A stretch of 62,756 nucleotides of DNA from a virus (IMGVR_UViG_3300027869_000002:1-62756), one strand, 5' to 3'; counted from the stretch's first letter, positions 18,154-47,476 are shown. Numbers and translations are program-made. The notes: a model not told the origin generated them from the letters alone.

Positions 18154-18585
18154 ATGGCACCGAAACAGATTGTGCGTCCCCCACTGAAAACGCCGGAAGC
18201 AGAGAAGCCGTCCGAAGTAAAGAAACCCGCCGAGGCAGAGAAAAAAGCCGAAGCACATGACAGGCGGAGTGCCGCGGGCGTAGCGTGGAAGAAGCCTCTC
18301 CCGCGAGAACCAGACCATCTCCTGTGGAAACGCGCCCGCGCCGAAAATGCGCGCGTGGTGATTCGCCTGCTAACCGGCGACGTGATCGCTGGCTTGGTGG
18401 CGGACTCCGGCTTGTACACCGTGATGATTCAAAGCGACGACGGCCAAGTGCTCGTTTTTAAAAACGCGATCGCGACGGTTCATGCCCCGTTCACCAGCAG
18501 CTCGAAAGAGTCGAAGCCGGACGAGCCGCCGGGCCCCACGACGGTTCCCCCACCTCCTGGCAGCGCCACGATCGATCCGATGTAA
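18154..18585 (+). CDS. hfq: Hfq/Sm-like RNA chaperone, antisense to the late operon
   Basis: GGAGGA RBS; Sm1-like VVIRLLTGDVIAGLVADSGLYTVMI and Sm2-like VLVFKNAIATV (compare Hfq VYKHAISTV). Confidence 0.7.
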   Translation: MAPKQIVRPPLKTPEAEKPSEVKKPAEAEKKAEAHDRRSAAGVAWKKPLPREPDHLLWKRARAENARVVIRLLTGDVIAGLVADSGLYTVMIQSDDGQVLVFKNAIATVHAPFTSSSKESKPDEPPGPTTVPPPPGSATIDPM

Positions 18586-25647: not shown

Positions 25648-26397
25648 TTAAGCCGCCGGCGGCCGCGAGCTAACGAGCTTCAGCGTCCCGGTGCCGTTGC
25701 GCGCGTTCTCTCCGCCGATGGTCCACAACTGCTGCGCCCACTGTTCGAATTCCGAGGTGTCGGATTTCAGCCTCACGCGGAAATAGAAGTTGAACGTGGC
25801 ACTGATCGGCCCGGTGGGTTGGGCGGCCCATTGAATCACGAGGCCCCGCCAGGAATAGCCGGGAATCGCAACGCCCGGGCCCAGGATAGTGTAGTCCGTG
25901 CCGTTGTTCTTCAATACGCCGTTCGCATAGACCGCGATGGTGCTCGCCGGGTTTAGGTCAGTGACATCCTCCCAGAACAATCCCCCCATGTTCCGCTGGA
26001 TGGGCGAGTAGTAAACCGGAGGCGAGCCGCCGTCGTTGACCAGTTGCAGCTCAGCCTGGGTGTTGGGAACCGGGGGAGAGCCTGAAAGCGCAGGACCCAC
26101 CGAGTCATCTGACGGATCGTCGAACAGGATGTCGTTCAATTGCCCCTGGCAGGCCAGGATGAATCCCATGAAATAGCGCAGGTCGGTGTACGGCGCGTAC
26201 GGTTGTGTGTTCCCCGAGCCTGGCCAGGCGTCGAAGAGAAACTCGTACATCAGTGTGAAGGTCCAGACGGGATTGTAGGTTTGCGCGATCCTTACGGTGT
26301 CTTCTCCAGGCGAGGCTTGGACGATGGTCTTGCCGTCCATGGATTTGAGGACGGTCCAGGTGAGTCCCTTGATATTGGCGGGCCAGATAGCTGACAT
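25648..26397 (-). CDS. Distal tail protein (DUF2460-like; 2 GSPP motifs)
   Basis: Follows tape measure; ISATFNFYFRVRL C-terminal motif. Confidence 0.75.
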   Translation of the reverse strand: MSAIWPANIKGLTWTVLKSMDGKTIVQASPGEDTVRIAQTYNPVWTFTLMYEFLFDAWPGSGNTQPYAPYTDLRYFMGFILACQGQLNDILFDDPSDDSVGPALSGSPPVPNTQAELQLVNDGGSPPVYYSPIQRNMGGLFWEDVTDLNPASTIAVYANGVLKNNGTDYTILGPGVAIPGYSWRGLVIQWAAQPTGPISATFNFYFRVRLKSDTSEFEQWAQQLWTIGGENARNGTGTLKLVSSRPPAA

Positions 26398-30330: not shown

Positions 30331-31101
30331 TTATCCGAGATCCGCGTACATCTTGCCGAGCGTATCGGTCGAGTCCGTGTTGGCCTCGAAGTCCACGTCC
30401 GACACCCAGAAATCTTCCTGCTTGGTGGGGATGTTGAAGCTGCCCATCGTGCAGCAGTAGAGTTCCACGCCCAGGATCTGGTTGCGGAACGTGTTGAACA
30501 GGAACGCGCGGAATTCGGGCGCGTATCCCATGTACTGGTTCGTGAGGGTGACAGTCACGCCGCGGCTGGCATTGGTGTAGGTGTAGGAGACCAGCACGGT
30601 GGCGCCGTTGTCCAGCGCGTTGAACGTGTAGGTGCCGGCGGAATACTGATACTGCCCCTGCAGCGGGGCGCCAGTGACCAGCACGAGCTGTTGGCCGGCG
30701 TTCGTTCCCGTCGCGTAGATCACACCGTAATTGGTCACGATGGTGGCCGAATTGATCACGGTGATCTGGTTGGCCACGGGCGGCGAACCCACGGCTCCAA
30801 TGATGTCCTGCTCATCGGCCGCCAGGATGGTCATGCCCGCCGTCTGGGTCTGGCCCCAGTACAGCTGGTTCAACAGCGTGGGGTCTTGCGAGGCATACTT
30901 CGCCTTCACGGTCACATTGATTTTGCCCCTGGCCGTGGCCACGGCGAACTGCTTCTGACCGAACAGCTTTTTCAGGTCGCCTTTGACGTCGAGTTGGGCT
31001 TCCTGCAGCGTCCCGAATTTGTAAGGCGTGGGGTTCGCTGCCTGGTTGCCCTGGTTCGGTGTAGCGTAGAGAACGCCAGTCCCGAATTGAAAATCAGGCA
31101 T
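30331..31101 (-). CDS. Major tail tube protein (1 GSPP motif)
   Basis: AAGGAG RBS; FGTG.LY...FGTLQE...KKLFGQKQFAVA.ARGK; synteny. Confidence 0.85.
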   Translation of the reverse strand: MPDFQFGTGVLYATPNQGNQAANPTPYKFGTLQEAQLDVKGDLKKLFGQKQFAVATARGKINVTVKAKYASQDPTLLNQLYWGQTQTAGMTILAADEQDIIGAVGSPPVANQITVINSATIVTNYGVIYATGTNAGQQLVLVTGAPLQGQYQYSAGTYTFNALDNGATVLVSYTYTNASRGVTVTLTNQYMGYAPEFRAFLFNTFRNQILGVELYCCTMGSFNIPTKQEDFWVSDVDFEANTDSTDTLGKMYADLG

Positions 31102-31156: not shown

Positions 31157-31657
31157 CTACGGAACTAAAATCTTGACCGGGATGATGGCGCCGGCCTGTT
31201 GGGAATAGATGCCCTGGTCAATGAGCGATTCGCCTTCGATCCAGCAGTGGTGAACCAGGCCGCCCAGGGTCTGCAGGTTCTGATAACTGCCATTCTGGGG
31301 TGCTAAGGCCGTTTCAATCGCCAGCAGCAGCGCGTTGATTTGTGTGGCCGCGAGCGAGGTTTCTTGTCCGGGCGCCGGATTGATGGCCGATTCGAAGCAG
31401 TACATCACCAGCCACACATCGAGCGTGAGTTTTCCCCCCGTGCCCATGGGCCTCGGGACGCGCGATTCCTTCATCTCGACGACGAACAGCGCGGGCTGCT
31501 GCGCGGGGGAGAGTTCTTCCGGATGCACGTGCCGGCGTCCGACCGTCTGAAAGATCGGCGGCGAGCCTTGCAGATTTACCTGCAACAGAGCGAGCAGCGC
31601 CGCGTAGATGGGCTCCCGATCGATCAGGGCGAGCTGGCTAGGCATGCAGCGCCTCAT
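31157..31657 (-). CDS. Tail terminator (1 GSPP motif)
   Basis: REPIYAAL...QPALF...QTLGGLVHHCWIEG; upstream of tail tube. Confidence 0.75.
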   Translation of the reverse strand: MRRCMPSQLALIDREPIYAALLALLQVNLQGSPPIFQTVGRRHVHPEELSPAQQPALFVVEMKESRVPRPMGTGGKLTLDVWLVMYCFESAINPAPGQETSLAATQINALLLAIETALAPQNGSYQNLQTLGGLVHHCWIEGESLIDQGIYSQQAGAIIPVKILVP

Positions 31658-32105
31658 CCACGCGCGCGCTCAGCCGCTCGAAGAACGCGCCCTCGTAGGC
31701 CTCGCCCGTGGCGATGATGAACGGCTTCGCGGCTTCGGTGAATGCCTTGTGGGCGCTCCGGAAAAGGGTCTCGCCGCCAATCTGCATGGGCACGAGCACG
31801 TCTGTCACTTCCGGGATGGAGACCCCGTACTCGAGCCAGTAATGCGGTTGCTTCGACGAGGAACGCGGCTTATAGATGGCCACGATCTCCGTGCCGGTCT
31901 CGATCACTCTGCCGGCGCGCCCCAGGATGCGCTCGAGCAACCCGGTTTTGCGGTGCGGCGCCGCGGCCGCGGCTTCGGCTTGCGCCAGGCCTCGAACCCC
32001 ATCCCGCATGCCCAGCCGGATGCCAACGAGGATGCGCTCCTGCATGTTCTCGATATGCGCCACGGAAGCGTCTACCGACGTCTGGGTGATTTGGAAAAGG
32101 ATCAT
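31638..32105 (-). CDS. Tail completion protein (HK97 gp10-like)
   Basis: APHRKTGLL...WLEYG...KPFI; ATGA coupling at 32102-32105. Confidence 0.7.
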   Translation of the reverse strand: MILFQITQTSVDASVAHIENMQERILVGIRLGMRDGVRGLAQAEAAAAAPHRKTGLLERILGRAGRVIETGTEIVAIYKPRSSSKQPHYWLEYGVSIPEVTDVLVPMQIGGETLFRSAHKAFTEAAKPFIIATGEAYEGAFFERLSARVDEALHA

Positions 32106-33100
32106 CGCTTCCGCGCCTTGGCCATCTCCAGCTTTTTGTCCATATTGAGCAACGGCACGCGCTCCGGAGGCGTTTGCAGCGGGTCGTAGCGCCTGTAGCG
32201 TTCGATCACGCGCTTGACCGATGCCGGAATTTCGCTTTCGGGCGTGGTCACGCTGTCGCCGGTCGACATGTGTTTCTGGGTCTGCCCGATGTTTTGCCGG
32301 CTTTTGTAACTGTGGCCGGTCCACTCGACGACGGCCTGCGCGGCGTCCGGAGGAACCGTGGCATAGCCGGCGTTGTAGGTGATCGAGTACTCGCGCTGAT
32401 CCGTGAATTTGTAGACCTTGCCGTCGAGATACAGTTCATAGCGCCGCTCGGGGTCGATGTCGGAATCGATCCACCAGCCCGGTAAAACGTCATTCGTCGA
32501 TTGCGGGATGGCCACCAGGCTTCCCAGGTCGAACCAGGTGTAGGTGATGACCACCTGGATGCCGGCCAGGGCATCCGCAGCCGAAAACGAATAGAAGCCC
32601 GTCGCTCGATTCACGCTGTACTGCCCGGCCGCGAGAGTCCCCTGCGAAACAAACGCCAGCGGAAGCCCGGTTGCCGCGTTCACCACCGCAGCTTGGGCAT
32701 TGCCGGCGTCCGGCGGTCCGTCATACATGAAATCCGCGGCATGGGCGACGCTGATGGTTGAGACTGGCGGAGAGCCGCCCAGCGTATAAGGCTCTTGCGC
32801 CTGCTCGATCGACGAGCCCGTGAGGGTGGGAGGGCTTCCCGTGGCGTGGCCGGCGTCGATCAGTGAGACATTCACGATCGAATTGATGGGCCAGTGCCGC
32901 AGCACCATCAAGTCTCCGCCGTCGCCTTCGCGCACCTCGTTGTAAATGGCGGCGGGATAAAAATCCGGGCGCTTGATTTCGTTGATGAAATCGAGTGAGG
33001 CGGAAGTCACCAGGCCCGAGATGATGGTGTCGTCGCTGATCTGCGCCGTAGGGATGGCCAGCCAGGCTTTGACCGCCGCGAGAGTAGTGAGATCAGCCAC
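32102..33100 (-). CDS. Head-tail adaptor-like protein with inserted domain (2 GSPP motifs)
   Basis: DLTTLAAVKAWL...ITYNAGYATVPPDAAQAV gp6-type ends. Confidence 0.75.
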   Translation of the reverse strand: MADLTTLAAVKAWLAIPTAQISDDTIISGLVTSASLDFINEIKRPDFYPAAIYNEVREGDGGDLMVLRHWPINSIVNVSLIDAGHATGSPPTLTGSSIEQAQEPYTLGGSPPVSTISVAHAADFMYDGPPDAGNAQAAVVNAATGLPLAFVSQGTLAAGQYSVNRATGFYSFSAADALAGIQVVITYTWFDLGSLVAIPQSTNDVLPGWWIDSDIDPERRYELYLDGKVYKFTDQREYSITYNAGYATVPPDAAQAVVEWTGHSYKSRQNIGQTQKHMSTGDSVTTPESEIPASVKRVIERYRRYDPLQTPPERVPLLNMDKKLEMAKARKR

Positions 33101-33803
33101 GGGTTTGCGCCCAATCCTCGACGCGCTTGGACCACAGCAAACGGTCGACGGCTTCCCAGGATTTGCCGGTCATCTCTACGTCCCGGTCCCAGGCCTTGAT
33201 GAGCATGCGCATGGCGAGGCGAATGGTCGCGGGGACTGACTCGGGTGCAGAGCCGTAGCCGGCGGTGAAGTTCACGGTGACGGCGCTTGGAACGTAGAGC
33301 ACAGAGGGCCAGTTCTGTCCGGAGTTCGGGAAGATGCGGGCGGGCTCGGATTTCAGATCGACGACGAATTGCCCGCTCTGATCCTGCGGCGTTCCTGGAA
33401 GCAGGGTCTGCTGGTTCCCGTTTGTGTCGACGTACTGGATGTTATCGACACTCAGGATGGGCGACGGAAACAGCTTGACCATCTGGCTGTAATTCCAGAG
33501 CGTGGTGGAGAATCTGGGCAGCGAGTAATATGCCGGCGGGTAGGCCTGCTGGCTCATTAACGTGTCGGTGTAGTACGGGAACGAATCCATCGACTGCGCG
33601 AAGCCCGTGGCGATGAAGGTGCGCCGCGTGAAGGTCTCGCAATATTCCCGCGCCGCTACGATGAGATCCCGCAGCCTGGTGGCCAGGTTCTTCGAAGTGA
33701 CATGGTCGGAGTCCTCCCAGGGTCCATAGCCGAGCATCACTTTCACGTCGGCGAGTGACAGCGGACCGCACGCGGGCGGAGAAGTATTTACAATGGACGA
33801 CAT
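33093..33803 (-). CDS. Head-tail connector (HK97 gp6-like)
   Basis: PLSLADVK...LIVAAREYCETFTRR...FTAGYG...VPATIRLAM. Confidence 0.85.
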   Translation of the reverse strand: MSSIVNTSPPACGPLSLADVKVMLGYGPWEDSDHVTSKNLATRLRDLIVAAREYCETFTRRTFIATGFAQSMDSFPYYTDTLMSQQAYPPAYYSLPRFSTTLWNYSQMVKLFPSPILSVDNIQYVDTNGNQQTLLPGTPQDQSGQFVVDLKSEPARIFPNSGQNWPSVLYVPSAVTVNFTAGYGSAPESVPATIRLAMRMLIKAWDRDVEMTGKSWEAVDRLLWSKRVEDWAQTRG

Positions 33804-33809
33804 TGGAGA

Positions 33810-34103
33810 GTGACCCTTATGGGCCTGGCTTACATCCGCATCGACGTGGCGCTGCCCTCTGAGCTGCTCGCTCGGTTCTTGCAGGGCATTCGCGATCTAG
33901 AACAGACCGCGCCAGACGATATTCAACTGGCGATCCTCACCAGCGACGACAGCGCCAGCATGCAGGAGCAGTTGGACCTGGTGAAAAACATCTCACCGGG
34001 ATTTGCGCACAGCGTGTCGGTGCCTCGATCCGAGATGACCGCCGAACAGAAGGCACGGCACGACGGTATTCTGAAGTACCTGAATCGCGATCGCGCCGGT
34101 TAG
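33810..34103 (+). CDS. Hypothetical protein, antisense
   Basis: Fills the gap between minus-strand genes; protein-like composition. Confidence 0.6.
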   Translation: MTLMGLAYIRIDVALPSELLARFLQGIRDLEQTAPDDIQLAILTSDDSASMQEQLDLVKNISPGFAHSVSVPRSEMTAEQKARHDGILKYLNRDRAG

Positions 34104-34318
34104 CGCGTCTCGCGCCTGACCGCGCGGGTCTTCGCTTCGGGATTCTCGATACGGAGCCTGTTGCCGCTCGCTACGACGGTGAGCAGTTCCCGGATCTTCT
34201 TCAGCTCGGCGGTTTGTGCGTCCATAGCTTCCTGCAGCCACGGCGCATGTAGCGAGGGTCCACCGCAGGAGTGCAGCTCGCCCGGCGCGACCTTGCAGGC
34301 GCAGTTGGGGCAGGTCAA
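34100..34318 (-). CDS. Small hypothetical protein (MTCPNCAC...RETR)
   Basis: TTG overlapping the upstream stop; basic C-terminus. Confidence 0.5.
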   Translation of the reverse strand: MTCPNCACKVAPGELHSCGGPSLHAPWLQEAMDAQTAELKKIRELLTVVASGNRLRIENPEAKTRAVRRETR

Positions 34319-34605
34319 TTGCGCATCCCCATGGGCATGGATACAGCCGGCACGATCAGGCTGCGCTGGATCGGCTCCATAAACGCGTGCTTGTGCGCGG
34401 TGCAGTAATGGCCTTCCGGTTGAATCAGCCATCCGAGACTGACCAGGTGATTGAAGAACCCCTGCACCACGTTGTTCTTGGGGACGCCCGGAGCCATCTG
34501 CCCGAACTGCTGTTCGAGGCAGCGGCCGTTATCACACTGCACGCGCATGATGGCCGCGTCGGGCTGGCCTGGCTGCCCTTTCTGGGAGCCTATACGGAAT
34601 GACAT
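34315..34605 (-). CDS. Small Zn-binding protein
   Basis: CDNGRC...GW...YCTAH. Confidence 0.6.
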   Translation of the reverse strand: MSFRIGSQKGQPGQPDAAIMRVQCDNGRCLEQQFGQMAPGVPKNNVVQGFFNHLVSLGWLIQPEGHYCTAHKHAFMEPIQRSLIVPAVSMPMGMRN

Positions 34606-34820
34606 CTATTCTCTTTCTTACCAGGAACCCGCTACAGGATTATGCCGGGTACATCCAACAGATCAGGGACTCGCGAGATACTCTCGCCTTGGCGGTCAAG
34701 CTCGCGGATCTGAGAGACCACCTTCGCCCGAACTGTCCGGCTCGACTGCGACCGCAATATCAGAAGGCTTGGCAGACTTTGACAGGCGGCCCTTTTCCCA
34801 CCATTCCCAAAGGTGACTGA
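34599..34820 (+). pseudogene. C-terminal half of an HD-domain (alarmone-hydrolase-like) phosphohydrolase, antisense
   Basis: LTR...DYAGYIQQI...ALAVKLADLRDH...QYQKA; HD-containing N-terminal half absent. Confidence 0.5.
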
Positions 34821-35514
34821 CTCCCGCGCTATACGTTCTCCAGGGGCGCTGCCAGCCCTTCGCGATATACTCCGCGCTCAGCGACGCCCACGGCTCCATG
34901 GGAAGCCGGTCCAGCAGGAACAGCGATAGTGCCGGCTGAATCTGCGCCCGCGTGACTTCCGGATGCGCCCTTTGCCAGGCCTCGAAGCCGCCGTATTTCC
35001 CCTCCGGACTCAGCGGCCGCCCTTCGAACGCGCGCCGGCGAAAGACGCCGATTCCGCCGATGGTGGCCACCTCCACGTAGGAAGGTGGACCTGGTCGCAT
35101 CTCCAGATCGCGCGTGGGCTCCGGACGATAGGCCATCGAGAAGTGCGGGCAGCGGCTGTCCGGCGGTTCGATGCCCAGCAGGTCCAGTTCCGGATGGGCT
35201 TCAAACGTGGCCGCGCATTGGTCGAGCCAGCCGGGAGGCACGATCACGTCGTTATCGATCTTGGCGAAGAACTCGGCGCCAGGCTGCGACAGGTATTCCG
35301 CCATGATTGCTACCGGGCTGCCCCATACTCCTCCGTGAATTTCCCCCGCCGTTCTGAACGGTGATTGAAATTCCAAACTCACGTTTGGAAATTCGCTGTC
35401 CTGATAGGTGATCTGGCGATCAACCAGCCCCCAGTTCGTGTTTGCCAGCAGCGCCTTGAAGCTCGCCCGCGAAAACTTCAGGCGGTGGTGCGCCAGGAAT
35501 AGGATGTCGATCAC
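34696..35514 (-). CDS. GT-A/GT2-like glycosyltransferase
   Basis: FFAKIDNDVIVPPGWL (DxD motif), IGGIG. Confidence 0.8.
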   Translation of the reverse strand: MIDILFLAHHRLKFSRASFKALLANTNWGLVDRQITYQDSEFPNVSLEFQSPFRTAGEIHGGVWGSPVAIMAEYLSQPGAEFFAKIDNDVIVPPGWLDQCAATFEAHPELDLLGIEPPDSRCPHFSMAYRPEPTRDLEMRPGPPSYVEVATIGGIGVFRRRAFEGRPLSPEGKYGGFEAWQRAHPEVTRAQIQPALSLFLLDRLPMEPWASLSAEYIAKGWQRPWRTYSAGVSHLWEWWEKGRLSKSAKPSDIAVAVEPDSSGEGGLSDPRA

Positions 35515-36146
35515 CTGGTGGCCTCGGCGAAACTGGCGCTGGTCGACGCCTTCACGGCCGCGATTCGATGCAGGATTTTGCGCAGATCATCGCCATGGCC
35601 TGGCTGCTTCCACATCCGGTCCGAATTGCTCTCATATTCAAGCCGCCTGATTGGCAGGTCCAGCTCGAAAAACGGATTCAGCGCCGTGAAGACGCGGTCG
35701 CATTCTCGGTAGAACAAATCGTCGAATGGAAGTACGCCAAAGTAACGGTCGAAGCAGAAGCGCAGGTTGCGGTGAAACAGCGCCCCCCAGCCCACGAGAC
35801 TGATTCCGAGCGGGGCGTATGCCCGCCGGTGGCCAGGCGAAGGTATGTTGCAGGCGATTTCTTCCTGCGTCATTCGGTTATCGCAGATGGGCGATAGTGG
35901 CCCGGCACCCTTCTCCGCTCGCTCGATGAATTCCCGCACAGGCACCACGCAATCGTCATCCTGCACATAAATCCATTCGTGCTTCGCTTCGGCGATTCCC
36001 AGGTATCGCCCATAGACCTTAACGTCCAGCTTCCGTTTCGAGTTATCCCAGACCACGATGTCATCAAACGGCAGTGACTCCAGGATGGGAGACAGGTCCA
36101 CATCGCCCTTGGTGACGAGGACGGCCGAGATGTCAGAGCAGTTCAC
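35511..36146 (-). CDS. GT-A/GT2-like glycosyltransferase
   Basis: IVVWDNS...GRY...IYVQDDDCVV. Confidence 0.8.
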   Translation of the reverse strand: MNCSDISAVLVTKGDVDLSPILESLPFDDIVVWDNSKRKLDVKVYGRYLGIAEAKHEWIYVQDDDCVVPVREFIERAEKGAGPLSPICDNRMTQEEIACNIPSPGHRRAYAPLGISLVGWGALFHRNLRFCFDRYFGVLPFDDLFYRECDRVFTALNPFFELDLPIRRLEYESNSDRMWKQPGHGDDLRKILHRIAAVKASTSASFAEATR

Positions 36147-37593
36147 GAAAGAACTCCAGCGCCCGCGCCTTGGTCAGTTGCCCGCTGCGGGTGTACGCGC
36201 GGGTCTTGCCATCTAACAGCGGAGGATTTAGCGGGTCCATGGCCGATCCCAGGTTGATATACGTCCGCCCGGGGAACTTCTCCCACAGCTTCACCACCGG
36301 GATGGTTCCAGCCATGCCGGCCGCCCAGAGCAGGATATCGAAGCCGAACGGGTCATTCGCCAGCTTCTCGTAAATCGAATCCACCGACGCCAGCAGGTCC
36401 TTCATGGGCGTGACCACGTGCTCGCAGCCGAGCATGCGCGCGGCCGCGGCGTGCTCCTTGGGTCCAATATACACTTTCCGCCGCGTGTCCGCCTTGACCG
36501 CCCTGTAGAAATCGAGCAGCTCGCAGGATTCGCGCGTTAGGAGCAGGGCTTCGAAGTGTAGGAAGTTCAGCCGGGCGCCCCCGATCAGCCTGGCATACTC
36601 TGCCCGGTATTCTGTCGAGCGGTTGGCACCGAACGAAGCCGAGAGCCAGTCGCCGACAAAAATTCGGCCCTGCTCCTTTTCCCAATAATCAAGCTCTGCA
36701 TCGCCGCCAGACCCATCCGGACGCCAGGCGAACAGGCGATCCCACGCCTCCTGCATCCCGCGCGCAAGTTCCGGCGAATACTGTTCGCCGTCCGCTGTGT
36801 GGCCGATTCCCTTCCGGTTGATGCACTCTAACGCGCCATCGCCGTAGCGGACGAACAGGAACGGGTTGCGGCTCCGAAGCCTGGATGTGAGGTACCCGGC
36901 GCTTTCGTCGATCGACAGGCGGGCGTAGGTCCCATTGCGGCTGAGCGGGTCGAATCTCATCTGGCTATCCGAGCTGATGACTCCCGTGGGCCTCGGCGGG
37001 CCGCCCCAGAATTCGGATGATCCCCGTACCGGGCGCTGCGCCACCACGCCGTATCCCAGCGGGAATCGAAAGCCGCCCAGGTCGATCGAAGCGCGGCGCT
37101 CGTGGCGGACGATGTCAAAGCCGGCCTGGAACAGCAGGACTTCCATCCCCGCCTTGGTGAACCGCCAGAAATCGTTAACCTCCACCTCGTCCCAATTTGT
37201 CGGGTACGTCATCACCAGGTAGCCGCCGGGTTTCAGCACACCGAATAACCGGCCCAGCCACACCTTGGGGTCGACCAGGTATTGCATCACCTGGGTGCAG
37301 ATGACGGCGTCGAAGAGCGCGCCTGCCGGCCAGGGATCGCCCTCGTCGTACGGCACATAATCGCCGTGGACAAGGTCCCGGTATGGCTGCGGCGTTCGGC
37401 ACGTCTCCGGCTTCCCGGCGCCGAAGTCCAGCACGCGGCCGCCGTAAATATATCTGCCGTGCTGCTCCATGAACCGGCGTATGGAGGTGCGCTCCAGCTC
37501 CCGCACGGTGTGCTGGTTCCACAGCTCGGGCGCGATCCAGTCCTTGGTTAAAGTGGCTTCTGCCATATCCCTATCATGGCCGGGATCTCGCAC
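36133..37593 (-). CDS. SAM methyltransferase fused to a GT-D (DUF1792)-like domain
   Basis: VLDFGAG...FDAVICTQV...LKPGG; C-terminal FVRYGDG...AAGM...INLGSAMDP. Confidence 0.75.
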   Translation of the reverse strand: MRDPGHDRDMAEATLTKDWIAPELWNQHTVRELERTSIRRFMEQHGRYIYGGRVLDFGAGKPETCRTPQPYRDLVHGDYVPYDEGDPWPAGALFDAVICTQVMQYLVDPKVWLGRLFGVLKPGGYLVMTYPTNWDEVEVNDFWRFTKAGMEVLLFQAGFDIVRHERRASIDLGGFRFPLGYGVVAQRPVRGSSEFWGGPPRPTGVISSDSQMRFDPLSRNGTYARLSIDESAGYLTSRLRSRNPFLFVRYGDGALECINRKGIGHTADGEQYSPELARGMQEAWDRLFAWRPDGSGGDAELDYWEKEQGRIFVGDWLSASFGANRSTEYRAEYARLIGGARLNFLHFEALLLTRESCELLDFYRAVKADTRRKVYIGPKEHAAAARMLGCEHVVTPMKDLLASVDSIYEKLANDPFGFDILLWAAGMAGTIPVVKLWEKFPGRTYINLGSAMDPLNPPLLDGKTRAYTRSGQLTKARALEFFRELL

Positions 37594-38183
37594 TGCATCA
37601 CCGGGTCAGTGGAAAATAACTCGCGATGCACCTCCCGCAGTTCTGTATAGGACAGGTGCCTGTCGAGCTGCCCGGTGGTGAGCGAGTGATCGTGAATCAG
37701 GTTCAGCAGCTCCAGCGGACGCAGGTGCACGTGCAGGTAGAAGACGCCCCCCGGCTTCAGGATGCGGGCGATCTTGGGGAGCAGGTGGAAGCCCATCTCG
37801 CCGTGATCCAGGGCGTTGGCGCACAGGATGGTGTCGAAGACGTAATCGCCCGGGTCCCACTGTTCAAACGGCTCCGCGAAATACCGGATGTCGCCGCGCC
37901 CCTCCAGCAGGCTCAGCTCCTCATAGTGCTCGATCAGCGGATCGATCGCCACGCGCAGGCCCGCGTTCAGATGCGGAAGCATTCCCCAATACGGTCCGGT
38001 CCCGATCTCCAGGATGCTCTGATCTTCCGGTGCAACCCACGGCCGCTCGGGCGCGTGTGACCCGAAAGCCACGAGGTAGGCACGTTGCAGCGCCTTCTGC
38101 GCCAGGAGGCCGTCCGGTCCGTCGAGCAGCTCCGCCCGTGTCCAGTACTTCAGCTCGCGGAGATCTTTTCGGCTGAGGGTCAC
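37548..38183 (-). CDS. Class I SAM methyltransferase
   Basis: ILEIGTGP...AIDPL...NALDH...ILKPGG; GTG start overlaps the upstream stop. Confidence 0.85.
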   Translation of the reverse strand: MTLSRKDLRELKYWTRAELLDGPDGLLAQKALQRAYLVAFGSHAPERPWVAPEDQSILEIGTGPYWGMLPHLNAGLRVAIDPLIEHYEELSLLEGRGDIRYFAEPFEQWDPGDYVFDTILCANALDHGEMGFHLLPKIARILKPGGVFYLHVHLRPLELLNLIHDHSLTTGQLDRHLSYTELREVHRELFSTDPVMQCEIPAMIGIWQKPL

Positions 38184-38797
38184 TCGTAATACTCCCAGAG
38201 ATCCCGGCAGAAATGATCCCGGCACCCCAGGCGTTCCAGGTCGATCTGCGACTCGTAGCAGGCCAGCGCTCGAAGCTTGCGGCGGACCATTTCGCCCGTG
38301 AATGCCACTGGCCTATCCGGGTCTCCGTTCGGCAATCGGCGCTCGGATTTCCCGCCTCGATGCGTCTCTGTTCGATAGGTGTAGGTGAGATAGTGAGTCA
38401 CCTGGCCTGGCCAGAGGATGTCTGCGGCGCGCCCGACGGCGTTGTGCTGCTCGTGGCCATTCTCTTCAATTGCGGGGGCATAGACGTGCTCGATCTCTTC
38501 ATCTCCGAATGGCCGCCATGGCTTTATAAGTAGTAGCGCATCCGAGACCGCCTCCGCGTCCGACGCGGTCGCATGATGGTCGGGGATGCCGGCAAACATC
38601 GCGATATCACAGCCCAGTTCCAGCAGCGCGCGGCGGGTTTCGAATCGTCGATCGTCCGCAGTCACCGGATTACCCCGCTTTTGCTGGAGGAACGAATCGA
38701 AGACCACAACCACTGCCACATTCGACTTCTCGCGCTGGATGGTGAAACTAGTCCACAACGTTTCATCATCGTTGTGGGGGGCCAACACGAGCCTCAA
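38180..38797 (-). CDS. PIG-L family N-acetylhexosamine deacetylase
   Basis: LAPHNDDE...RRFETRRA...GHEQH...KLRALACYESQ. Confidence 0.85.
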   Translation of the reverse strand: MRLVLAPHNDDETLWTSFTIQREKSNVAVVVVFDSFLQQKRGNPVTADDRRFETRRALLELGCDIAMFAGIPDHHATASDAEAVSDALLLIKPWRPFGDEEIEHVYAPAIEENGHEQHNAVGRAADILWPGQVTHYLTYTYRTETHRGGKSERRLPNGDPDRPVAFTGEMVRRKLRALACYESQIDLERLGCRDHFCRDLWEYYE

Positions 38798-39510
38798 GCG
38801 GACGCTCTCCGAAGAACCCAGGCGGCCTTCATGCGCGCGCGGGTTTCCGCGCTCTTTGGCCTACCTTTTGAAGCGACGCTGATCTTTCGTTTCGTCTCCG
38901 CTGAAAGCGGAACTCCCGGACGGACGACACGGCATATTGCTTGCTGGCGTTGTTCGGGATTCTGCAAGCGACGTTTGGCCGCCGCACTCATTGCCGCCCT
39001 GCCGGCTAGAGATTTAGGCTTCCCGGCGTTCGCGGCGCGGCATTTGTCTTTTGCGAGGTCGCTGTGCTTCCAGCCTCTGACTCTTTCGCGGGTTCGATTG
39101 GCCTCAGCGATGCGCTCCCGAGCTGCTGGATCCGCAAACCGCCGTCTATTAGCCGCGGCTATTTTCGCGCGCTGTTCTTGGGTCAGCGCAAAGCCGCCGC
39201 CGCCCTCTCCGCCCGCTCTGATATTGGTCAGGCGCGCGCCCGCATCACGAAAAGCAGCGATCCATCTTTGCTCAGCCTGGTCGAGTCCAGCCCCTTCCGC
39301 CAGTGATTCGAGCTGCACAATGGAGACCTGATAACCCGCCGATCTGATCCAGTTACAGACGTACTGCCGCATACCCCTGCGCGCAGCCCAGAGGTGGCGG
39401 TCCAGGCGATCAGCCAAAGAAGCCGTCGTCTTCCCGACGTAGCGAATCGCTCCAGTCCGATTATCGCGAAGCCCATAAATAAAGGCGCTTTCCATATTCC
39501 CCATGGTCAC
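38794..39510 (-). CDS. GIY-YIG homing endonuclease with NUMOD3 repeats
   Basis: IYGLRD...RYVGKT...RL..H...E..WI...LTN..GGEG; SAETKRKIS and SAETRARM repeats. Confidence 0.85.
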   Translation of the reverse strand: MTMGNMESAFIYGLRDNRTGAIRYVGKTTASLADRLDRHLWAARRGMRQYVCNWIRSAGYQVSIVQLESLAEGAGLDQAEQRWIAAFRDAGARLTNIRAGGEGGGGFALTQEQRAKIAAANRRRFADPAARERIAEANRTRERVRGWKHSDLAKDKCRAANAGKPKSLAGRAAMSAAAKRRLQNPEQRQQAICRVVRPGVPLSAETKRKISVASKGRPKSAETRARMKAAWVLRRASA

Positions 39511-39554
39511 ACAGAGCGATCAAATCGAAGGTACTAGATGGGTGGTATCCAGCT

Positions 39555-40079
39555 TCAATTCTTGACCGCCTGTAACAATGCCCTCACCTTGCTGCGTCTC
39601 TCCGCGCCCTCGCCGTATTCATAGAGCTCCCAGTGCAGCGGCCGAAACAGCGCTGTGATTCCATAAGCCGGCCCCAATCTTCCGCGTTCACCCCGAGGGT
39701 GATTCCACTCTTCGCAGAAGTAGTACCGGTCATCCATGGTCCAGAACGTCGTGTGCGTGGGGTCCGCAAACGCCCCCGGATTCACCCGTCCGTCCGAGAG
39801 ATACACGCACGGCACCCACAGATCCAAAGTCCCGTTAGCCTGCAGCACGCGGTGGGCTTCGTTCAGCGTGAAGATCTTCGATGGGAGATGCTCGAACACA
39901 TCGTGGGCAATGATGTCCTCGACTGACGACGTCCGCCACGGCCAGGCCACCCGCAGGTCCGCGATCTGATCGCACGGCGGGCATTGATCCACGTTCAGAT
40001 AGCCCGGCTTCAAATCGTCCGAGCATCCCAAATGCAGCCTCAAAACCACTCCCGCTTCGAAGCCGCCAGGCCCGCGCAC
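39555..40079 (-). CDS. SAM methyltransferase (type 11-like)
   Basis: LHLGCS...GYLNVD...DL...HDVFEHL...EAHRVL...DPTH. Confidence 0.85.
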   Translation of the reverse strand: MRGPGGFEAGVVLRLHLGCSDDLKPGYLNVDQCPPCDQIADLRVAWPWRTSSVEDIIAHDVFEHLPSKIFTLNEAHRVLQANGTLDLWVPCVYLSDGRVNPGAFADPTHTTFWTMDDRYYFCEEWNHPRGERGRLGPAYGITALFRPLHWELYEYGEGAERRSKVRALLQAVKN

Positions 40080-40110
40080 AGACTCAGGCCATAAAGGAAC
40101 AGCAGAAAGA

Positions 40111-40824
40111 TCATGTCAGTGCCTCAACATTGACCGCCGCGAAGAATGCCGACGGAAACGCCTCGTCCCGGATGCGCGGCCAGCCGTTCGATGCGATGTT
40201 GCGCGCGCTTGAGCTATTCGAATCGTGCGCCCGCGCCACGCACATCCCTCCGCCGTCGAGGGTGGCCACGCCGTCAATCGCTTGCGCCTGGCGCATGACT
40301 TGTACGTCCGTGGCGTCGAAGCGCGGGTTCGCGGGGAGTCCGGAGTACTCGGGCCACCGGTGCGATTTCCAGAACTCTTTGGTGTAGGCCATGGAGGTTC
40401 CGATCGCGAAGCCTTCCGCGCCTTTCCACCGGTATCCGAGCGCCGTCCGCATGTCCCAGAACAGGAGCGAGTGATAGCCGGACATGGGTTTGCCTGACTC
40501 GCCGAGCAGTCTTACCTGCTCTTCCATCCGTCCGGGCGCCGACCAGTCGTCGGAATCGAAGTGCATAATCACTTCGCCCTGGGCAAGCTGGCAGCACTTT
40601 TCACGCTTCGCCCCGATGGTTGCGCGTGGCTGTCTCAGGTACCGCAGCGAAAGCTGCTTTCCCGCACAGAAGCGATCGGCAAACGCTCCGGGGAATGACG
40701 GATCGTCTTCGTCGTCCAGAATCACCAGCTCGCGCGGCGCGTACGTCTGCGCCATGAAACACTTCACAGCGGTCCGGGCGAGCGCCTGCCTGCCCCTGGT
40801 GGGCATGATGGCGGAAACGAGCAT
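40111..40824 (-). CDS. GT2 glycosyltransferase
   Basis: VSAIMPT.GR...ELVILDD...IGAKR...HFDSDDWS. Confidence 0.9.
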   Translation of the reverse strand: MLVSAIMPTRGRQALARTAVKCFMAQTYAPRELVILDDEDDPSFPGAFADRFCAGKQLSLRYLRQPRATIGAKREKCCQLAQGEVIMHFDSDDWSAPGRMEEQVRLLGESGKPMSGYHSLLFWDMRTALGYRWKGAEGFAIGTSMAYTKEFWKSHRWPEYSGLPANPRFDATDVQVMRQAQAIDGVATLDGGGMCVARAHDSNSSSARNIASNGWPRIRDEAFPSAFFAAVNVEALT

Positions 40825-40879: not shown

Positions 40880-41710
40880 TCACAGGACTTCTACCGTGGC
40901 AACGATATCCCCGAGAGCGTCCACTGTGACTGCTCCACCGGTGAATACGCCCGCACCGGTGCAGGTGGCGATGGTGCCGGCAGTGGGCGACGCGGAGTAG
41001 AGCGTGCCGCCGTTATTCGTGATGGTCACCGCACCCGTGGGAACGTTGCCCGATACCGTGATGGTCCCGAGGGCTGCGACACCGGTGGAATTATTGGTAA
41101 AGGTGACGATCTGGGTGCCATAGCGCCCATCGAGAGTCGTGCCGTAGGCCTGGATGATTTTTCCCGTGTAGTCGATGAACGTTGCCGGATTGGTGTGGCA
41201 GGTCCGCGGGGGAAACGTGATCACCCCGCCGGCGGCGATCGCCGTGGTGATCGCGGTGGTGTCGTCAGTCACTCCATCGCAGCGGGCGCCTGAGTTTTCA
41301 ACCGACACGGCGCCGGTGACCTGGGATGGATTCGGCCCGCTGATCTCCGTGCGAATGGTGACCAGCACGCCTGCCCCTCCGGACCAGGTGGCGGAGATGG
41401 AATAGTGATCGTAGACCGAGGCGATCGTGGGTTTGCGCGAAGCCACGCTCGAGCCCGTGGTGGCGTTCGAATCCAGCTGCGTGCAAACGTTCAGCGACGT
41501 GCAGCCCGAAATAACTACGGTCGTTGAGGTGGGAGAGCCGAGGACCGTTTCGAGGAAGCCGGCGACCTGGGAGCTATACTGATTCGCCACCGTGATGGAG
41601 GCGCCCGAGGCGGAGATGGTCTGCGAATCGGTATGGAGCAGCCCGCCCTGGGCGAGAGTCAGCAGGCACGCGAGCAGCCCGAGCGCGATGGTCTTTGAGA
41701 GTGTGAGCAT
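40880..41710 (-). CDS. Exported-looking protein with a pectate-lyase-3-type beta-helix start
   Basis: Signal-peptide-like MLTLSKTIALGLLACLLTLAQG; GARCDGVTDDTTAI motif. Confidence 0.6.
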   Translation of the reverse strand: MLTLSKTIALGLLACLLTLAQGGLLHTDSQTISASGASITVANQYSSQVAGFLETVLGSPTSTTVVISGCTSLNVCTQLDSNATTGSSVASRKPTIASVYDHYSISATWSGGAGVLVTIRTEISGPNPSQVTGAVSVENSGARCDGVTDDTTAITTAIAAGGVITFPPRTCHTNPATFIDYTGKIIQAYGTTLDGRYGTQIVTFTNNSTGVAALGTITVSGNVPTGAVTITNNGGTLYSASPTAGTIATCTGAGVFTGGAVTVDALGDIVATVEVL

Positions 41711-41762
41711 GAGGAAAAGGTGGGGCCGCTGGTAGGCAGCAGCCCCCAAGCGAGGCTTCTGG

Positions 41763-42194
41763 TTAAGTGATTGCAAAGCCGGTGATTGAGCCGTTGACGT
41801 ACCAGGTGCCGTTATACGCTTTGAGCGATACGGACTGGCCCTTGGTGCCGGCGGCGGTCAGGATGTGGTTGACGCCGTTGATGCCGTTGGCGGGCGTGGT
41901 CACGGTGTGCGCGTGCCCCGTGCCGTCGATGATATCCAGCCGGCGGCCGTCATCACCGCCTGCGGAGGGCAGGCCGGCAATAGGAGCGGCGAGAAGATAG
42001 GCGCCGGCACTCACCTTAGTGAGAATGACCAGGCCTTCCTTCGAGGAGATCTCCGCCGGGTCGGAGGCCACGGGCGGGGACGATACGGTATCGAGCGGTT
42101 TCACCTCGACGCCAAACATGGGTTCGAGGTTTTGACAGATGAAGCTCTCCTCGTCGGGAGAGGTAGTCGGGAAGCGGTTCACGATATTAGCCAT
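41763..42194 (-). CDS. Head decoration/capsid-associated protein (SSPPV variant motif)
   Basis: AAGGAG RBS, directly after MCP; beta-rich, ends LKAYNGTWYV. Confidence 0.65.
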   Translation of the reverse strand: MANIVNRFPTTSPDEESFICQNLEPMFGVEVKPLDTVSSPPVASDPAEISSKEGLVILTKVSAGAYLLAAPIAGLPSAGGDDGRRLDIIDGTGHAHTVTTPANGINGVNHILTAAGTKGQSVSLKAYNGTWYVNGSITGFAIT

Positions 42195-42254: not shown

Positions 42255-43559
42255 TTAGGAATTGGCGCAGTAGAACACCGGGTGGGTGCCGGCGTCCAAC
42301 AGGTTGCCGTCGTAGCGCGCAAACGCCAAGAACGCCACCTGGCCAAAATCCGCAAACCGCTCGACCAGGCGCAGGACCGACATCTCCTTCACGCGCCGGA
42401 TCAGGTACTTATCCAACGGGCCGAACGCCACGCTCTTGTTGAGGTGTCCCAACTGGGCCATGTCGTTATTGATCGAGAAGCCGTAGCCGTTGATGGTGTC
42501 CGCGGCGCCGGTGGTCATGCCGGCCATCCACAAGGGGCGGCCGTACTTGTCCTTCAGGGTCTTCACGAAGCGCAGGGTCTGATCGTGGAACATGAACTTC
42601 GCGCCCTTGCGATACAGCGGGTCTACCTGGTGCTCCAGGTTGACGAAGTCGGTGTAACCGAACTGCGTGGTGGGGTCCGGAACGGTCGCGTTGTCGTCGC
42701 CGATGACGGTCTGGGTGGAAGCGGCGGACGCGGTGATGATGCCCTTCGGCTCATTGGTTCCCGAGCCCACCGTGAACTTGGTGTTCGAGATACGGCCCAG
42801 GCGGGTGCCGAATTTCTTGACGAGGAAGCTCTCCATGTCGAAGGCCGAATCCTGGAGCAGCTCGATCGAAACCTTGACCAGCTTCGAAGAGAACTTCCAG
42901 GCGCCGAACAGGATCTGGCCGAGCGACACATCCGCGGTCGAAACCTGCTGGCCTTCGCCCACGATCTCACCGGCTACCGTGGTGTCGTTGTCGGTCGGGT
43001 AGGGCAACTGCTGGCCGGTGGCGGTGTCGAGCACCTCCGCCTGGTTCCACATGTCGCCGTAATACTTCAGCGCGTCTTCGATCTTGTTGGTAAAACCAAC
43101 CGGGACGAAGAAGCCCGTGGTGGCTCCGGGATACGCACCCTGGCCGCCGGATCCCATGTCGCGCGATTCCACGTCCATGATGGTGCGGCGGGTGGTGAGG
43201 ATTTTCTTATCCTCGTCCGAAATGCCGCGGAAGCCGTACTGGTCCGGCGTCCATCCCTGGCGCATGAAGTTATTGAACGCCCGCGCTTCTTTCTTGCGGG
43301 CTTCGGCGGCCACGTCGGGGCTGTCGGCGCCGTTGGGCGCGTTTTCCCGTCGCGTGGGGTCCTGGGGCGTGCGCAGCTCCGCGTCGAGAGCACCCGAGCG
43401 TTCCATGCGCGTGATGGCTTCGAGCAACTGCTTCTGCTCGGCGTCCATGGCGTCGAATTTGGTCATGTTCTCGGCCCGCGTGGCGGGAGTCGAGAGGTCC
43501 AAAGCTGCCATGTCGGCCGCGATTTTGCCGCGCTGTTCGCGCAGCTCCTTGCTGGTCAT
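42255..43559 (-). CDS. Major capsid protein (HK97 family, with delta domain)
   Basis: AGGAG RBS at MTSKELREQRG; GFFVP, VSIELLQDS, LKDKYGRPLW, FLAFARYDG. Confidence 0.95.
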   Translation of the reverse strand: MTSKELREQRGKIAADMAALDLSTPATRAENMTKFDAMDAEQKQLLEAITRMERSGALDAELRTPQDPTRRENAPNGADSPDVAAEARKKEARAFNNFMRQGWTPDQYGFRGISDEDKKILTTRRTIMDVESRDMGSGGQGAYPGATTGFFVPVGFTNKIEDALKYYGDMWNQAEVLDTATGQQLPYPTDNDTTVAGEIVGEGQQVSTADVSLGQILFGAWKFSSKLVKVSIELLQDSAFDMESFLVKKFGTRLGRISNTKFTVGSGTNEPKGIITASAASTQTVIGDDNATVPDPTTQFGYTDFVNLEHQVDPLYRKGAKFMFHDQTLRFVKTLKDKYGRPLWMAGMTTGAADTINGYGFSINNDMAQLGHLNKSVAFGPLDKYLIRRVKEMSVLRLVERFADFGQVAFLAFARYDGNLLDAGTHPVFYCANS

Positions 43560-43699
43560 AGAGTTTTCTCCTGTTGAGTTTTGGGGTGTGACACATCGCG
43601 CCTCAGCCGCCGCGGCCCGCGGGGTGTGCGCGCTTCCGCCCTCCGCGCGTGGCATCCAAGCCAGCCCGCATCCGGGCGCGCGTCAGGCGGCGAAAATTG

Positions 43700-46733: not shown

Positions 46734-46940
46734 TCATTCCGCCTTCTTGTGACTTATCTTGCTACCCGACGAAGATGTGACAAAGGCCCACGCGAACAGC
46801 AGCCCGCCCGCGAGCAGCAGCGCGGACCGCCACGACCAGCACGCCACCGCGCCCACAATCATGGCCAGGCCGATGAGTGCGGCCAGGCCGCGGGCAGCAG
46901 CGGCGCCCGCTTCCAGACGATTCTGGACCGGGCTGCTCAT
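46734..46940 (-). CDS. Small membrane protein
   Basis: Two hydrophobic helices; typical terL-portal position. Confidence 0.6.
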   Translation of the reverse strand: MSSPVQNRLEAGAAAARGLAALIGLAMIVGAVACWSWRSALLLAGGLLFAWAFVTSSSGSKISHKKAE

Positions 46941-47476
46941 ATGGACTTCACGACGAACGGCCTGCGCACGCCAGCGCTGTGGCGCTCAGCGGCTCCGAGG
47001 GCCAGGGCCATCCGGTCCACCGCAGACAGGTTCATGTCTTTCGTCGCGAATAGTGCGCCGCAGGCTATCTGGTTTCCACATCCGCAGGCGTCGTAGCCGT
47101 CCAGAGATTCGCCCACCTGGTAATCGCTCTGCACGCTGAACAGCCGGCCGCGAAACCCTACCAGAAATGTGCCGGCGGATTCCACGTCCTTGTCTTTGGT
47201 GGCGAAGCCGCCGGCCTTGAGGCAGTCGCGAACGGCGTTCACGAACGTGGTGCACATGAAGCCGTAAACGTTCTGGCCCTCCGCCATCACGGGCGGGGAG
47301 AAGGAATAGCGGAGCAGCTGGCCCATCCGGAACGAGGACGTGAAGCCGAAGAGAAACTCACCATTCTGGAAAACCTTCGGATCAGCCCGGACGGTCAAAT
47401 CGAACCCCGCAACGCCCGCGCTATCGCCGCCAATCCAGACCTTACCCTGCTCGCAGAATCCCGCGATGGCGGTCAT
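46937..47476 (-). CDS. Ntn-hydrolase (HslV/proteasome beta-like) protein
   Basis: N-terminal MT, IGGDS, PKVF, ACGCG...GAL. Confidence 0.7.
   Translation of the reverse strand: MTAIAGFCEQGKVWIGGDSAGVAGFDLTVRADPKVFQNGEFLFGFTSSFRMGQLLRYSFSPPVMAEGQNVYGFMCTTFVNAVRDCLKAGGFATKDKDVESAGTFLVGFRGRLFSVQSDYQVGESLDGYDACGCGNQIACGALFATKDMNLSAVDRMALALGAAERHSAGVRRPFVVKSI

Follow-up and report, generated by a model that had tools for sequence, protein, structure and literature searches.

The virus record IMGVR_UViG_3300027869_000002, analyzed here at its full length of 62,756 bases (the window), is a complete virus genome with a 127-base direct terminal repeat. Between its capsid and head-tail adaptor genes, at 34696–40824 on the minus strand and co-oriented with the structural genes, lies a cassette of eight open reading frames (ORFs) that encodes seven enzyme proteins with eight catalytic domains (four glycosyltransferase, one deacetylase and three methyltransferase) as well as a selfish endonuclease. 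Five of the seven junctions within the cluster overlap when counted from longest-ORF coordinates. A first-pass annotation of this DNA had described the same eight ORFs, with their order, flanking genes and mostly overlapping starts and stops, and this description stood. It had also proposed that the enzymes build a glycan on the virion that pairs with a Gly-Ser-Pro-Pro (GSPP) motif. The cassette, the motif and a putative glycosylation pathway that would connect the two are the subject of this work.

The enzyme cassette and the GSPP tag

Profile searches and structure models upheld every enzyme call of the first-pass annotation, including the GT-D fold and the two proteins it had labeled GT2-like (coordinates and scores in Table 1). 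In GT2a, residues D90, D92 and D93 are invariant among homologues. The small methyltransferase sMT is assigned as such because its orthologues in the related loci L006 and L007 match the Methyltransf_11 profile (E 4.8e-9 and 2.1e-6, respectively), and it is the best-conserved protein of the cluster, with 78% identity to its counterpart in L002 and 72% to that in L006. The homing endonuclease inserted behind it was found only in this genome. It is missing from L002–L008, where sMT and the PIG-L gene abut, and it failed a filter on G+C content at third codon positions (GC3) that the neighboring genes passed; it is a selfish insertion that stands outside the glycan pathway. The PIG-L translation contains PHNDDE near the N-terminus and HEQH further on, corresponding to H-x-D-D and H-x-x-H, which we take to be the zinc-binding motifs of the PIG-L/LmbE family. 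Its Pfam family and both motifs are held in common with N-acetylglucosaminyl-phosphatidylinositol (GlcNAc-PI) deacetylase, MshB and BshB. It is not a thiol-pathway enzyme, because its best NCBIfam equivalog, BshB1, scored 22 bits against a cut-off of 182.5; no score near the curated cut-offs was obtained in the NCBIfam search. If it acts on a protein-linked substrate, this would be a first for the PIG-L family.

The methyltransferase/GT-D fusion was folded together with 25 homologues and gave a model with a mean confidence score (pLDDT) of 82. Residues 220–470 superpose on the structures 5v4a and 4pfx with a Z-score of 15.3 and a root-mean-square deviation of 3.3–3.4 Å (211 of 268–277 residues), and across three DUF1792 GT-D structures the deviation is 3.3–3.7 Å over 211–213 aligned residues, a superposition no worse than the methyltransferase matches obtained with the N-terminal half. 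The top Foldseek match of the C-terminal half is again 4pfx (E 1e-7). Its match to the GT-D-like family PF22882 is weak (E 0.0096, 15.7 bits against a cut-off of 27), and a phmmer search of the GT-D domain against PDB sequences returned no match at E up to 10. Among 26 fusion homologues G251-D252-G253 and T266/D268/E270 are invariant, with D268-G-E270 forming a D-x-E triplet; the DUF1792 structure paper reportedly describes a metal-binding D-x-E motif, to which either this triplet or D252 may correspond. On the strength of the model, the C-terminal half is a GT-D-fold glycosyltransferase. Streptococcal DUF1792 (GT-D) enzymes, the sole solved GT-D proteins among the matches, extend Ser-linked protein glycans, and the fold is what the fusion has in common with the streptococcal serine-rich-repeat adhesin system (PDB 4pfx, 4phr, 5v4a). 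The two differ in that no sequence similarity is detectable, that the GT-D domain is here fused to a methyltransferase and not to a GT-A domain, and that the streptococcal GtfA/B pair and accessory secretion system have no counterpart.

For g211, the top Foldseek matches are all GT-A transferases, namely WrtF, ppGalNAcT2, K4CP, TarP and EXTL2 (TMq 0.65), and D63-D64-D65 and R47 are invariant among 50 homologues. None of 168 g211 homologues is named. The six best look-alike clusters in the ESM Atlas are 95–100% viral, and the family as a whole is mostly viral. The last enzyme, g272, is classified as GT2 because homologues in L007 and L008 match PF00535 (L007:3520–4344, E 1.3e-12; L008:3283–4011, E 3.3e-11); its D87-N88-D89 is invariant in a four-sequence alignment. 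With a 19-residue Kyte-Doolittle window of at least 1.6 as the criterion, no cassette enzyme contains a membrane-like segment, as the first-pass annotation had stated for transmembrane helices; the highest window (1.58) falls within the GT-D fold.

The motif is concentrated in proteins encoded by the same operon. S-P-P occurs 15 times in the 7777 residues of the packaging and structural proteins, and is absent from both the 2144 residues of the cluster proteins and the 7922 residues of 54 other ORFs. A scan of all 4-mers across 7045 residues of structural proteins put GSPP first (12 occurrences versus 0.17 expected) and SPPV second (9 versus 0.13), the next best 4-mer having a P of ∼7e-5. In 5000 within-protein shuffles GSPP had a mean of 0.20 and a maximum of 3. 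All 12 copies fall in adaptor 2, g166, the tail tube protein (a candidate assignment based on position and family size), the DUF2460 protein, the large tail protein and g224, while the portal, the capsid protein, the internal tape measure, the cassette enzymes and early genes have none. Six-frame translation of the genome gives 13 copies in total, of which 12 are in-frame in neck and tail genes. Since the Gly and Ser codons vary from site to site, with both TCN and AGY serine codons in use, the signal lies in the protein and not in the DNA.

Conservation of the tag was assessed in 26 site-by-relative comparisons, in which the motif columns were 88% identical (91/104) as against 62% (322/520) for flanks of ten residues on each side. 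The usual change within the tag is Gly to Ala, and insertions or deletions (indels) often adjoin it. A related genome, G001, has nine in-frame GSPP in the same protein families, and its orthologue of the large tail protein keeps all four sites and has five in all. The g166 copy is kept in L002, L023, L026 and L028. L023 and L026 keep the tag in the tube and DUF2460 proteins as well, L023 additionally in adaptor 2, and GSPP is also the top 4-mer in L023 and L038. L084, where GT2a is 39% identical, has three GSPPV in two large downstream ORFs. Among the 150 best tube-family representatives just one has GSPP; judging from these sequences, the tag is not a fold requirement. Two further observations concern individual copies. 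The domain inserted in adaptor 2 (residues 94–198) shares 42% identity with the tube protein's central domain, and GSPP is present in both. In L026, the capsid protein has gained a GSPPV insertion near its C-terminus (L026:79–93) that the capsid protein of this phage is without.

Table 1. Features of the cassette, the tagged proteins and neighboring genes, with supporting matches. Positions are those of the window.
Feature	Position	Strand	Matches and remarks
GT2a, soluble family-2 (GT-A) glycosyltransferase	40111–40824	-	PF00535 E 3e-13, 50.4 bits vs cut-off 23.3
sMT, small class-I S-adenosylmethionine (SAM) methyltransferase	39555–40079	-	Methyltransf_11 E 0.005, under Pfam cut-off
GIY-YIG/NUMOD3 homing endonuclease	38794–39510	-	phrog_314 5e-15; TIGR01453 3e-8, under its cut-off
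PIG-L/LmbE-family de-N-acetylase	38180–38797	-	PF02585 9e-11, 42.8 bits vs cut-off 28.2
MT2, class-I SAM methyltransferase	37548–38225	-	Methyltransf_23 3e-6, Methyltransf_11 1e-4
Methyltransferase/GT-D fusion	36133–37593	-	class-I methyltransferase at ∼25–190 (Methyltransf_23 9e-10), GT-D fold at ∼220–470
g211, GT-A-fold glycosyltransferase	35511–36146	-	structure model pLDDT 94.8; Pfam not significant (GT2 E 0.019)
g272, divergent GT2 glycosyltransferase	34696–35514	-	K-I-D-N-D motif; no Pfam match for g272 itself
Head-tail adaptor 2	32102–33100	-	PF05135 and phrog_442; GSPP codons 32825–32839, 32762–32776
g166, neck/tail protein	31157–31657	-	phrog_8150 1e-21; GSPP 31553–31567
Candidate tail tube protein	30331–31101	-	phrog_8234 8e-47; GSPPV 30775–30789, in an indel-rich loop
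DUF2460 tail protein	25648–26397	-	PF09343 3e-8; GSPPV 26068–26082, 26014–26028
1496-residue tail protein	18480–22970	-	PF13550 2e-9; GSPP 20274–20288, 19617–19631, 19176–19190, 18831–18845
g224, distal tail-module protein	17440–18114	-	no family match; GSPP 17818–17832, 17773–17787
HslV-family peptidase homologue	46937–47476	-	phrog_1040 6e-19; one F-S-P-P-V; between large terminase and portal
HK97-type major capsid protein	42255–43655	-	PF05065 1.3e-49; no GSPP; upstream flank of cassette
g143, small conserved protein after capsid gene	41763–42194	-	60% identity in L002; carries S-S-P-P-V
g298	40880–41776	-	N-terminal hydrophobic stretch (Kyte-Doolittle 2.06), Ser/Thr-rich; between capsid gene and cassette
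g96 and g110, overlapping Cys-rich small ORFs	34100–34605	-	both conserved in L023 and L026 (tblastn); one or two genes between cassette and adaptor 1
Head-tail adaptor 1	33093–33803	-	phrog_442 1e-8; T-S-P-P-A at residue 8; downstream flank of cassette

Relatives in viral and cellular genomes

A search of 5.8 billion clustered proteins yielded 27 homologues of the fusion protein, several of them on phage-sized contigs. Seven viral loci were recovered with it, each containing four or more cluster homologues. A synteny survey, one of the checks suggested in the first-pass annotation, places the cassette in the structural module of four divergent lineages (the group of the window, L006, L007 and L008), among capsid, gp6-like connector, head-completion and tail-completion genes. 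In L002–L005 all seven enzymes are found at the same place, with proteins 59–88% identical. In L006, which has six of the seven, they follow the genes for the adaptor and head completion and precede tail completion, and the cassette variants of L007 and L008, which include extra GT2 genes, adjoin capsid, connector and head-completion genes. An unrelated phage contig from a candidate phyla radiation (CPR) bin, L018, has an SU10-type capsid protein gene and, directly downstream of it, genes for a GT2-TPR protein, PIG-L, a methyltransferase, a cytidylyltransferase, g211 and GT2.

GT2a itself has 373 relatives in IMG/VR, 80 of whose loci were kept for neighborhood counts. A packaging, head, neck or tail homologue of this phage was located within 10 kb of GT2a in 51 of the 80. 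Capsid, adaptor and GT2a were all recognizable in 13 loci, with GT2a between the other two in six, after the adaptor in six and before the capsid in one. Close relatives of this phage (L023 and L026, adaptors 71–87% identical) have a different cassette, composed of GT2a (52–55% identity), unassigned proteins, Methyltransf_24 and FkbM-type methyltransferases and another GT2. In the more distant L034 the cassette is replaced by a DXD-motif transferase (L034:1927–2646) and a Galactosyl_T/Fringe/GT31-like transferase (L034:4714–5661), which sit at the protease-capsid and capsid-adaptor junctions. Because other transferases occupy the same junction in L034, the site is a hot spot for changing transferase sets, and for the same reason L034 was rejected as a cassette-free control. 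The short and more distant loci L031–L033, L035 and L036 are without both cassette and tag.

Scanning the g211 alignment against one genome per species identified 14 loci in cellular genomes at 28–34% identity, in which the relatives of GT2a and g211 show 27–36% identity. The GT2a-like segment directly precedes the g211-like one in ten of the 14, and in several loci a single protein of ∼700 residues combines the two, frequently along with a third GT2 domain. A DUF6519 gene is immediately upstream in six loci and an eCIS_core protein is next door in two more (8/14 in total). Loci of the injection-system type were seen among L011–L016, L019, L020 and L022. DUF6519 corresponds to eBAP5, described in the available portion of one report as the baseplate anchor of contractile injection system tail fibers (PMC12923769), the main text of which does not contain the word 'glycosyl'. 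Since these loci adjoin DUF6519 fiber or eCIS_core genes, the GT2a and g211 pair recurs beside phage-tail-like structural proteins, and this arrangement suggests that DUF6519 fibers may be glycosylated. The loci differ from ours in being cellular and not phage, and no GSPP enrichment was seen there. Among the fused forms, a 1529-residue protein (L017:712–5301) combines an MptE-like domain with three GT2-type stretches, one of which includes the g211-like part. Domains of the MptE-like type occur in flagellin glycosyltransferases.

Proposed pathway and alternative explanations

Our favored explanation, which we consider probable on the basis of these comparisons, is that the cassette carries out sequon-directed O-glycosylation of the phage's own particle in the cytoplasm, chiefly on neck and tail proteins, with the GSPP tag probably marking the sites of sugar attachment. 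The attachment site would most likely be the serine of a [G/A]-S-P-P-(V/T/I) tag placed in loops at the surface of the adaptor, tube, distal-tail and large tail proteins, exposure being judged from the indels. GT2a would recognize the tag and add a first sugar, probably an N-acetylhexosamine (HexNAc), from which the PIG-L enzyme would take off the N-acetyl group. The chain would then be extended by g211, g272 and the GT-D domain, and the three methyltransferase domains would cap hydroxyl or amino groups. GT2a is the best candidate for the tag-reading, initiating step because it is the only enzyme held in common with L023 and L026, which keep GSPP; L084 supports this choice, and L051 (see below) is a counter-example. 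The more specific version, in which GT2a reads a [G/A]-S-P-P sequon of already folded tail and neck proteins, initiating an O-glycan that interchangeable cassettes elaborate, is a tentative proposal that we would not yet bet on. We infer the glycosylation of the tag, the reading enzyme, the sugar identities and the order of steps from sequence; the benefit to the phage may likewise be shielding, stability or adsorption. As for the virion glycan paired with GSPP in the first-pass annotation, the enrichment and conservation of the tag strongly support it, in comparative terms, with the tagged proteins being those of the neck and tail and not the capsid.

There is precedent for phage enzymes acting on the particle. 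To our knowledge, mycobacteriophages are the only phages whose particles have been shown to be glycosylated. Virion O-glycosylation was reportedly described in the mycobacteriophages Che8, Corndog and Myrna by Freeman et al. 2023 (Cell Host Microbe 31:1216). In the portions of later reports available to us, mycobacteriophage glycosyltransferases modify the phage's own capsid and tail-tube proteins, cluster O adds an O-methyltransferase (PMC11600133, PMC12619734, PMC12363180), and the modification blunts antibody recognition (PMC11600133, PMC12363180). The likeness is that phage enzymes are proposed to decorate their own virion, and the system proposed here is analogous and not homologous. The fusion protein had no match by tblastn in 50,697 phage records, and GT2a had six partial matches in these records, none to a Mycobacterium phage. 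Whereas the mycobacteriophage glycans are placed, in the text available, at the C-terminal ends of capsid and tube subunits, the tagged loops here are internal and the capsid is untagged. The present cassette is also larger, adding a PIG-L deacetylase, a GT-D domain and three methyltransferase domains. A second parallel is the chlorovirus PBCV-1, which, as described in the available part of a paper on it (PMC7826918), builds its capsid glycan in the cytoplasm with viral enzymes (A064R, A111/114R), independently of host organelles. By its description there, A064R, with two transferase domains and a glycan-capping methyltransferase (PMC7826918), resembles the methyltransferase/GT-D fusion. PBCV-1 differs in being a eukaryotic giant virus with N-linked glycans on its capsid protein. 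Titles and abstract openings of the papers listed in searches on phage glycosylation, DUF1792 and DUF6519 report no phage GT-D enzyme, PIG-L glycan cassette or GSPP sequon, 'GSPP' itself not having been a search term.

Several observations weigh against tag-directed glycosylation of the particle. The portal and the capsid protein have no GSPP. The hhalign comparison of the g211 alignment with those of GT2a and g272 gave no meaningful match (probabilities 17% and 0.5%, respectively), so that the fold of g211 is settled by structure prediction. The phage is temperate, as indicated by its two tyrosine integrases, and a role of the cassette in the lysogen is therefore possible. All lineages clearly enriched in GSPP are close relatives, with GT2a at least 51% identical, such that the link between tag and cassette is confounded by descent. 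In the stretches examined, L007, L008 and L018, each with a cassette variant, have no GSPP and L006 has one, and 4-mer scans of L006, L007, L008 and L018 (small samples) and of L034 yielded no clear outlier. L051 has GT2a (42% identical) and the tube protein (60%) without any in-frame GSPP. Finally, [S/T]-P is found at the same loop in many members of the tube family, and part of the motif may accordingly be structural.

One alternative is that the cassette modifies a host molecule, such as a surface polysaccharide precursor, flagellin, pilin or an S-layer protein, changing the surface for superinfection exclusion or lysogenic conversion, and that GSPP is unrelated to it. The temperate lifestyle suits this explanation, as do the frequent occurrence of family-2 transferases and methyltransferases in polysaccharide clusters and the swapping of the cassette between close relatives, much as surface-glycan clusters are swapped. 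The NCBIfam near-misses of GT2a are enzymes for exopolysaccharide (EPS), colanic acid and teichuronic acid, all far under their cut-offs. On the other hand, the cassette enzymes are without membrane segments, and six-frame searches of the complete genome did not find GtrA, Wzx-type flippase or Wzy/ligase families; for GtrA (PF04138) the search extended to E up to 1, with positive controls in 13 of 14 genomes. The first-pass annotation had likewise reported no flippase, polymerase or GtrAB. With soluble enzymes and none of these partners, O-antigen conversion would have to proceed without its usual apparatus; the Gtr type relies on a GtrA flippase and membrane GtrB/GtrC, and neither feature is present here. 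Moreover, the cassette is within the late structural operon in several lineages and not beside an integrase, and the conserved, tail-specific tag would be left unexplained. We therefore regard modification of a host molecule as unlikely.

Equally, GSPP could have arisen in the tail proteins of this lineage for a structural or assembly purpose, or as a site for some other modification, while the cassette glycosylates virion proteins elsewhere or something else altogether. The [S/T]-P residues of the tube loop, the lack of GSPP in the examined parts of the cassette-bearing L007, L008 and L018 and the case of L051 speak for this explanation. However, at least six proteins contain the tag, in differing sequence contexts, it often adjoins indels, 149 of 150 tube-family representatives lack it, and the L026 capsid protein has gained a copy. 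Given this combination, a portable recognition site fits better than a fold element, and we give a motif unrelated to the cassette a small but real chance, the co-occurrence being confounded by descent.

The idea that the transferases protect the phage DNA from restriction by sugar hypermodification, already ranked as less likely in the first-pass annotation, is highly improbable. In its favor, phage GT-A enzymes that glycosylate 5-hydroxymethylpyrimidines are widespread and TarP-like with an R...DDD...EDY/F signature, as stated in the accessible part of a preprint (bioRxiv 10.1101/2023.12.21.572611); the invariant R47 and D63-D65 of g211 recall the R...DDD portion, and TarP is among its fold matches. 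However, known DNA glycosylation pathways cluster with genes that make hydroxymethylpyrimidines, and ∼65% of glycosyltransferase-containing viral contigs are without such partners and less likely to act on DNA, according to the same part of that preprint (bioRxiv 10.1101/2023.12.21.572611). This phage also lacks the usual partners, as six-frame searches at E up to 1 found no Tet/JBP (PF12851), C5 methylase (PF00145) or ThyA (PF00303), ThyX (PF02511) not being part of that search, and no gene for a polymerase or for nucleotide metabolism turned up among 87 ORFs scanned with Pfam. The DNA pathways in the portion of the preprint available to us (bioRxiv 10.1101/2023.12.21.572611) do not feature a deacetylase, three methyltransferases and a GT-D domain.

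If the more specific version, with GT2a as reader of the sequon, is correct, it would give phage particle glycosylation its first defined sequon, supply a portable glyco-tag that works in the cytoplasm, and be the first evidence that the process extends beyond actinobacteriophages. A non-homologous system in an unrelated phage lineage would suggest that virion self-glycosylation is widespread and arose more than once. The genetic footprint is broad, considering the number of GT2a relatives in IMG/VR and the mostly viral g211-like clusters in the ESM Atlas. The fused GT2a and g211 pair would, by extension, glycosylate the tail fibers of contractile injection systems, opening an unexplored layer of target recognition by these machines. 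A tag active in the cytoplasm could also become a tool for placing sugars on recombinant proteins or therapeutic phages. Because the tag is short and sharply defined, the hypothesis is directly testable.

Genome and operon context

The phage genome has a G+C content of ∼62%, and no tRNA genes were found in it. Its long minus-strand morphogenesis operon starts with the small and large terminase genes, followed by those for the HslV-like peptidase, portal, S78 protease and HK97-type capsid protein, and continues with the head-tail adaptors, the candidate tube protein, a 906-residue tape measure, the DUF2460 protein and the 1496-residue tail protein. A consensus scan for promoter-like sites found none, and the number of terminator-like sites (8) was close to that in shuffled sequences (8.4), so the scan does not inform the operon structure.

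Judged by the capsid protein, the closest cultured phages in a set of 50,697 phage records infect Proteobacteria and cyanobacteria and show 31–36% identity, and the best match of the large terminase (TerL) is 34% identical. A megablast search of the cluster DNA against phage records gave no match. With the cluster and fusion-protein searches empty and TerL matches this distant, no cultured relative or host can be named. TerL had two matches only (37–38% identity, uninformative on the host) in 301 genomes of the phylum of L009, and none in four metagenome-assembled genomes (MAGs) that carry g211 relatives.

The interval between the capsid gene and the cassette contains features of its own. A hairpin of 10 pairs with a T-rich tail (41746–41722) is located directly 3' of the g143 stop codon, inside the annotated 5' end of g298. 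g298 is absent from L002, and a piece of it recurs in proteins of 608 residues (L026) and 925 residues (L007). Elsewhere in the genome (51739–53058, 55045–55965, 56849–57940 and 60929–61870) are genes for an N6/N4 DNA methylase, a dockerin-domain protein near a lysozyme gene and the two tyrosine integrases.

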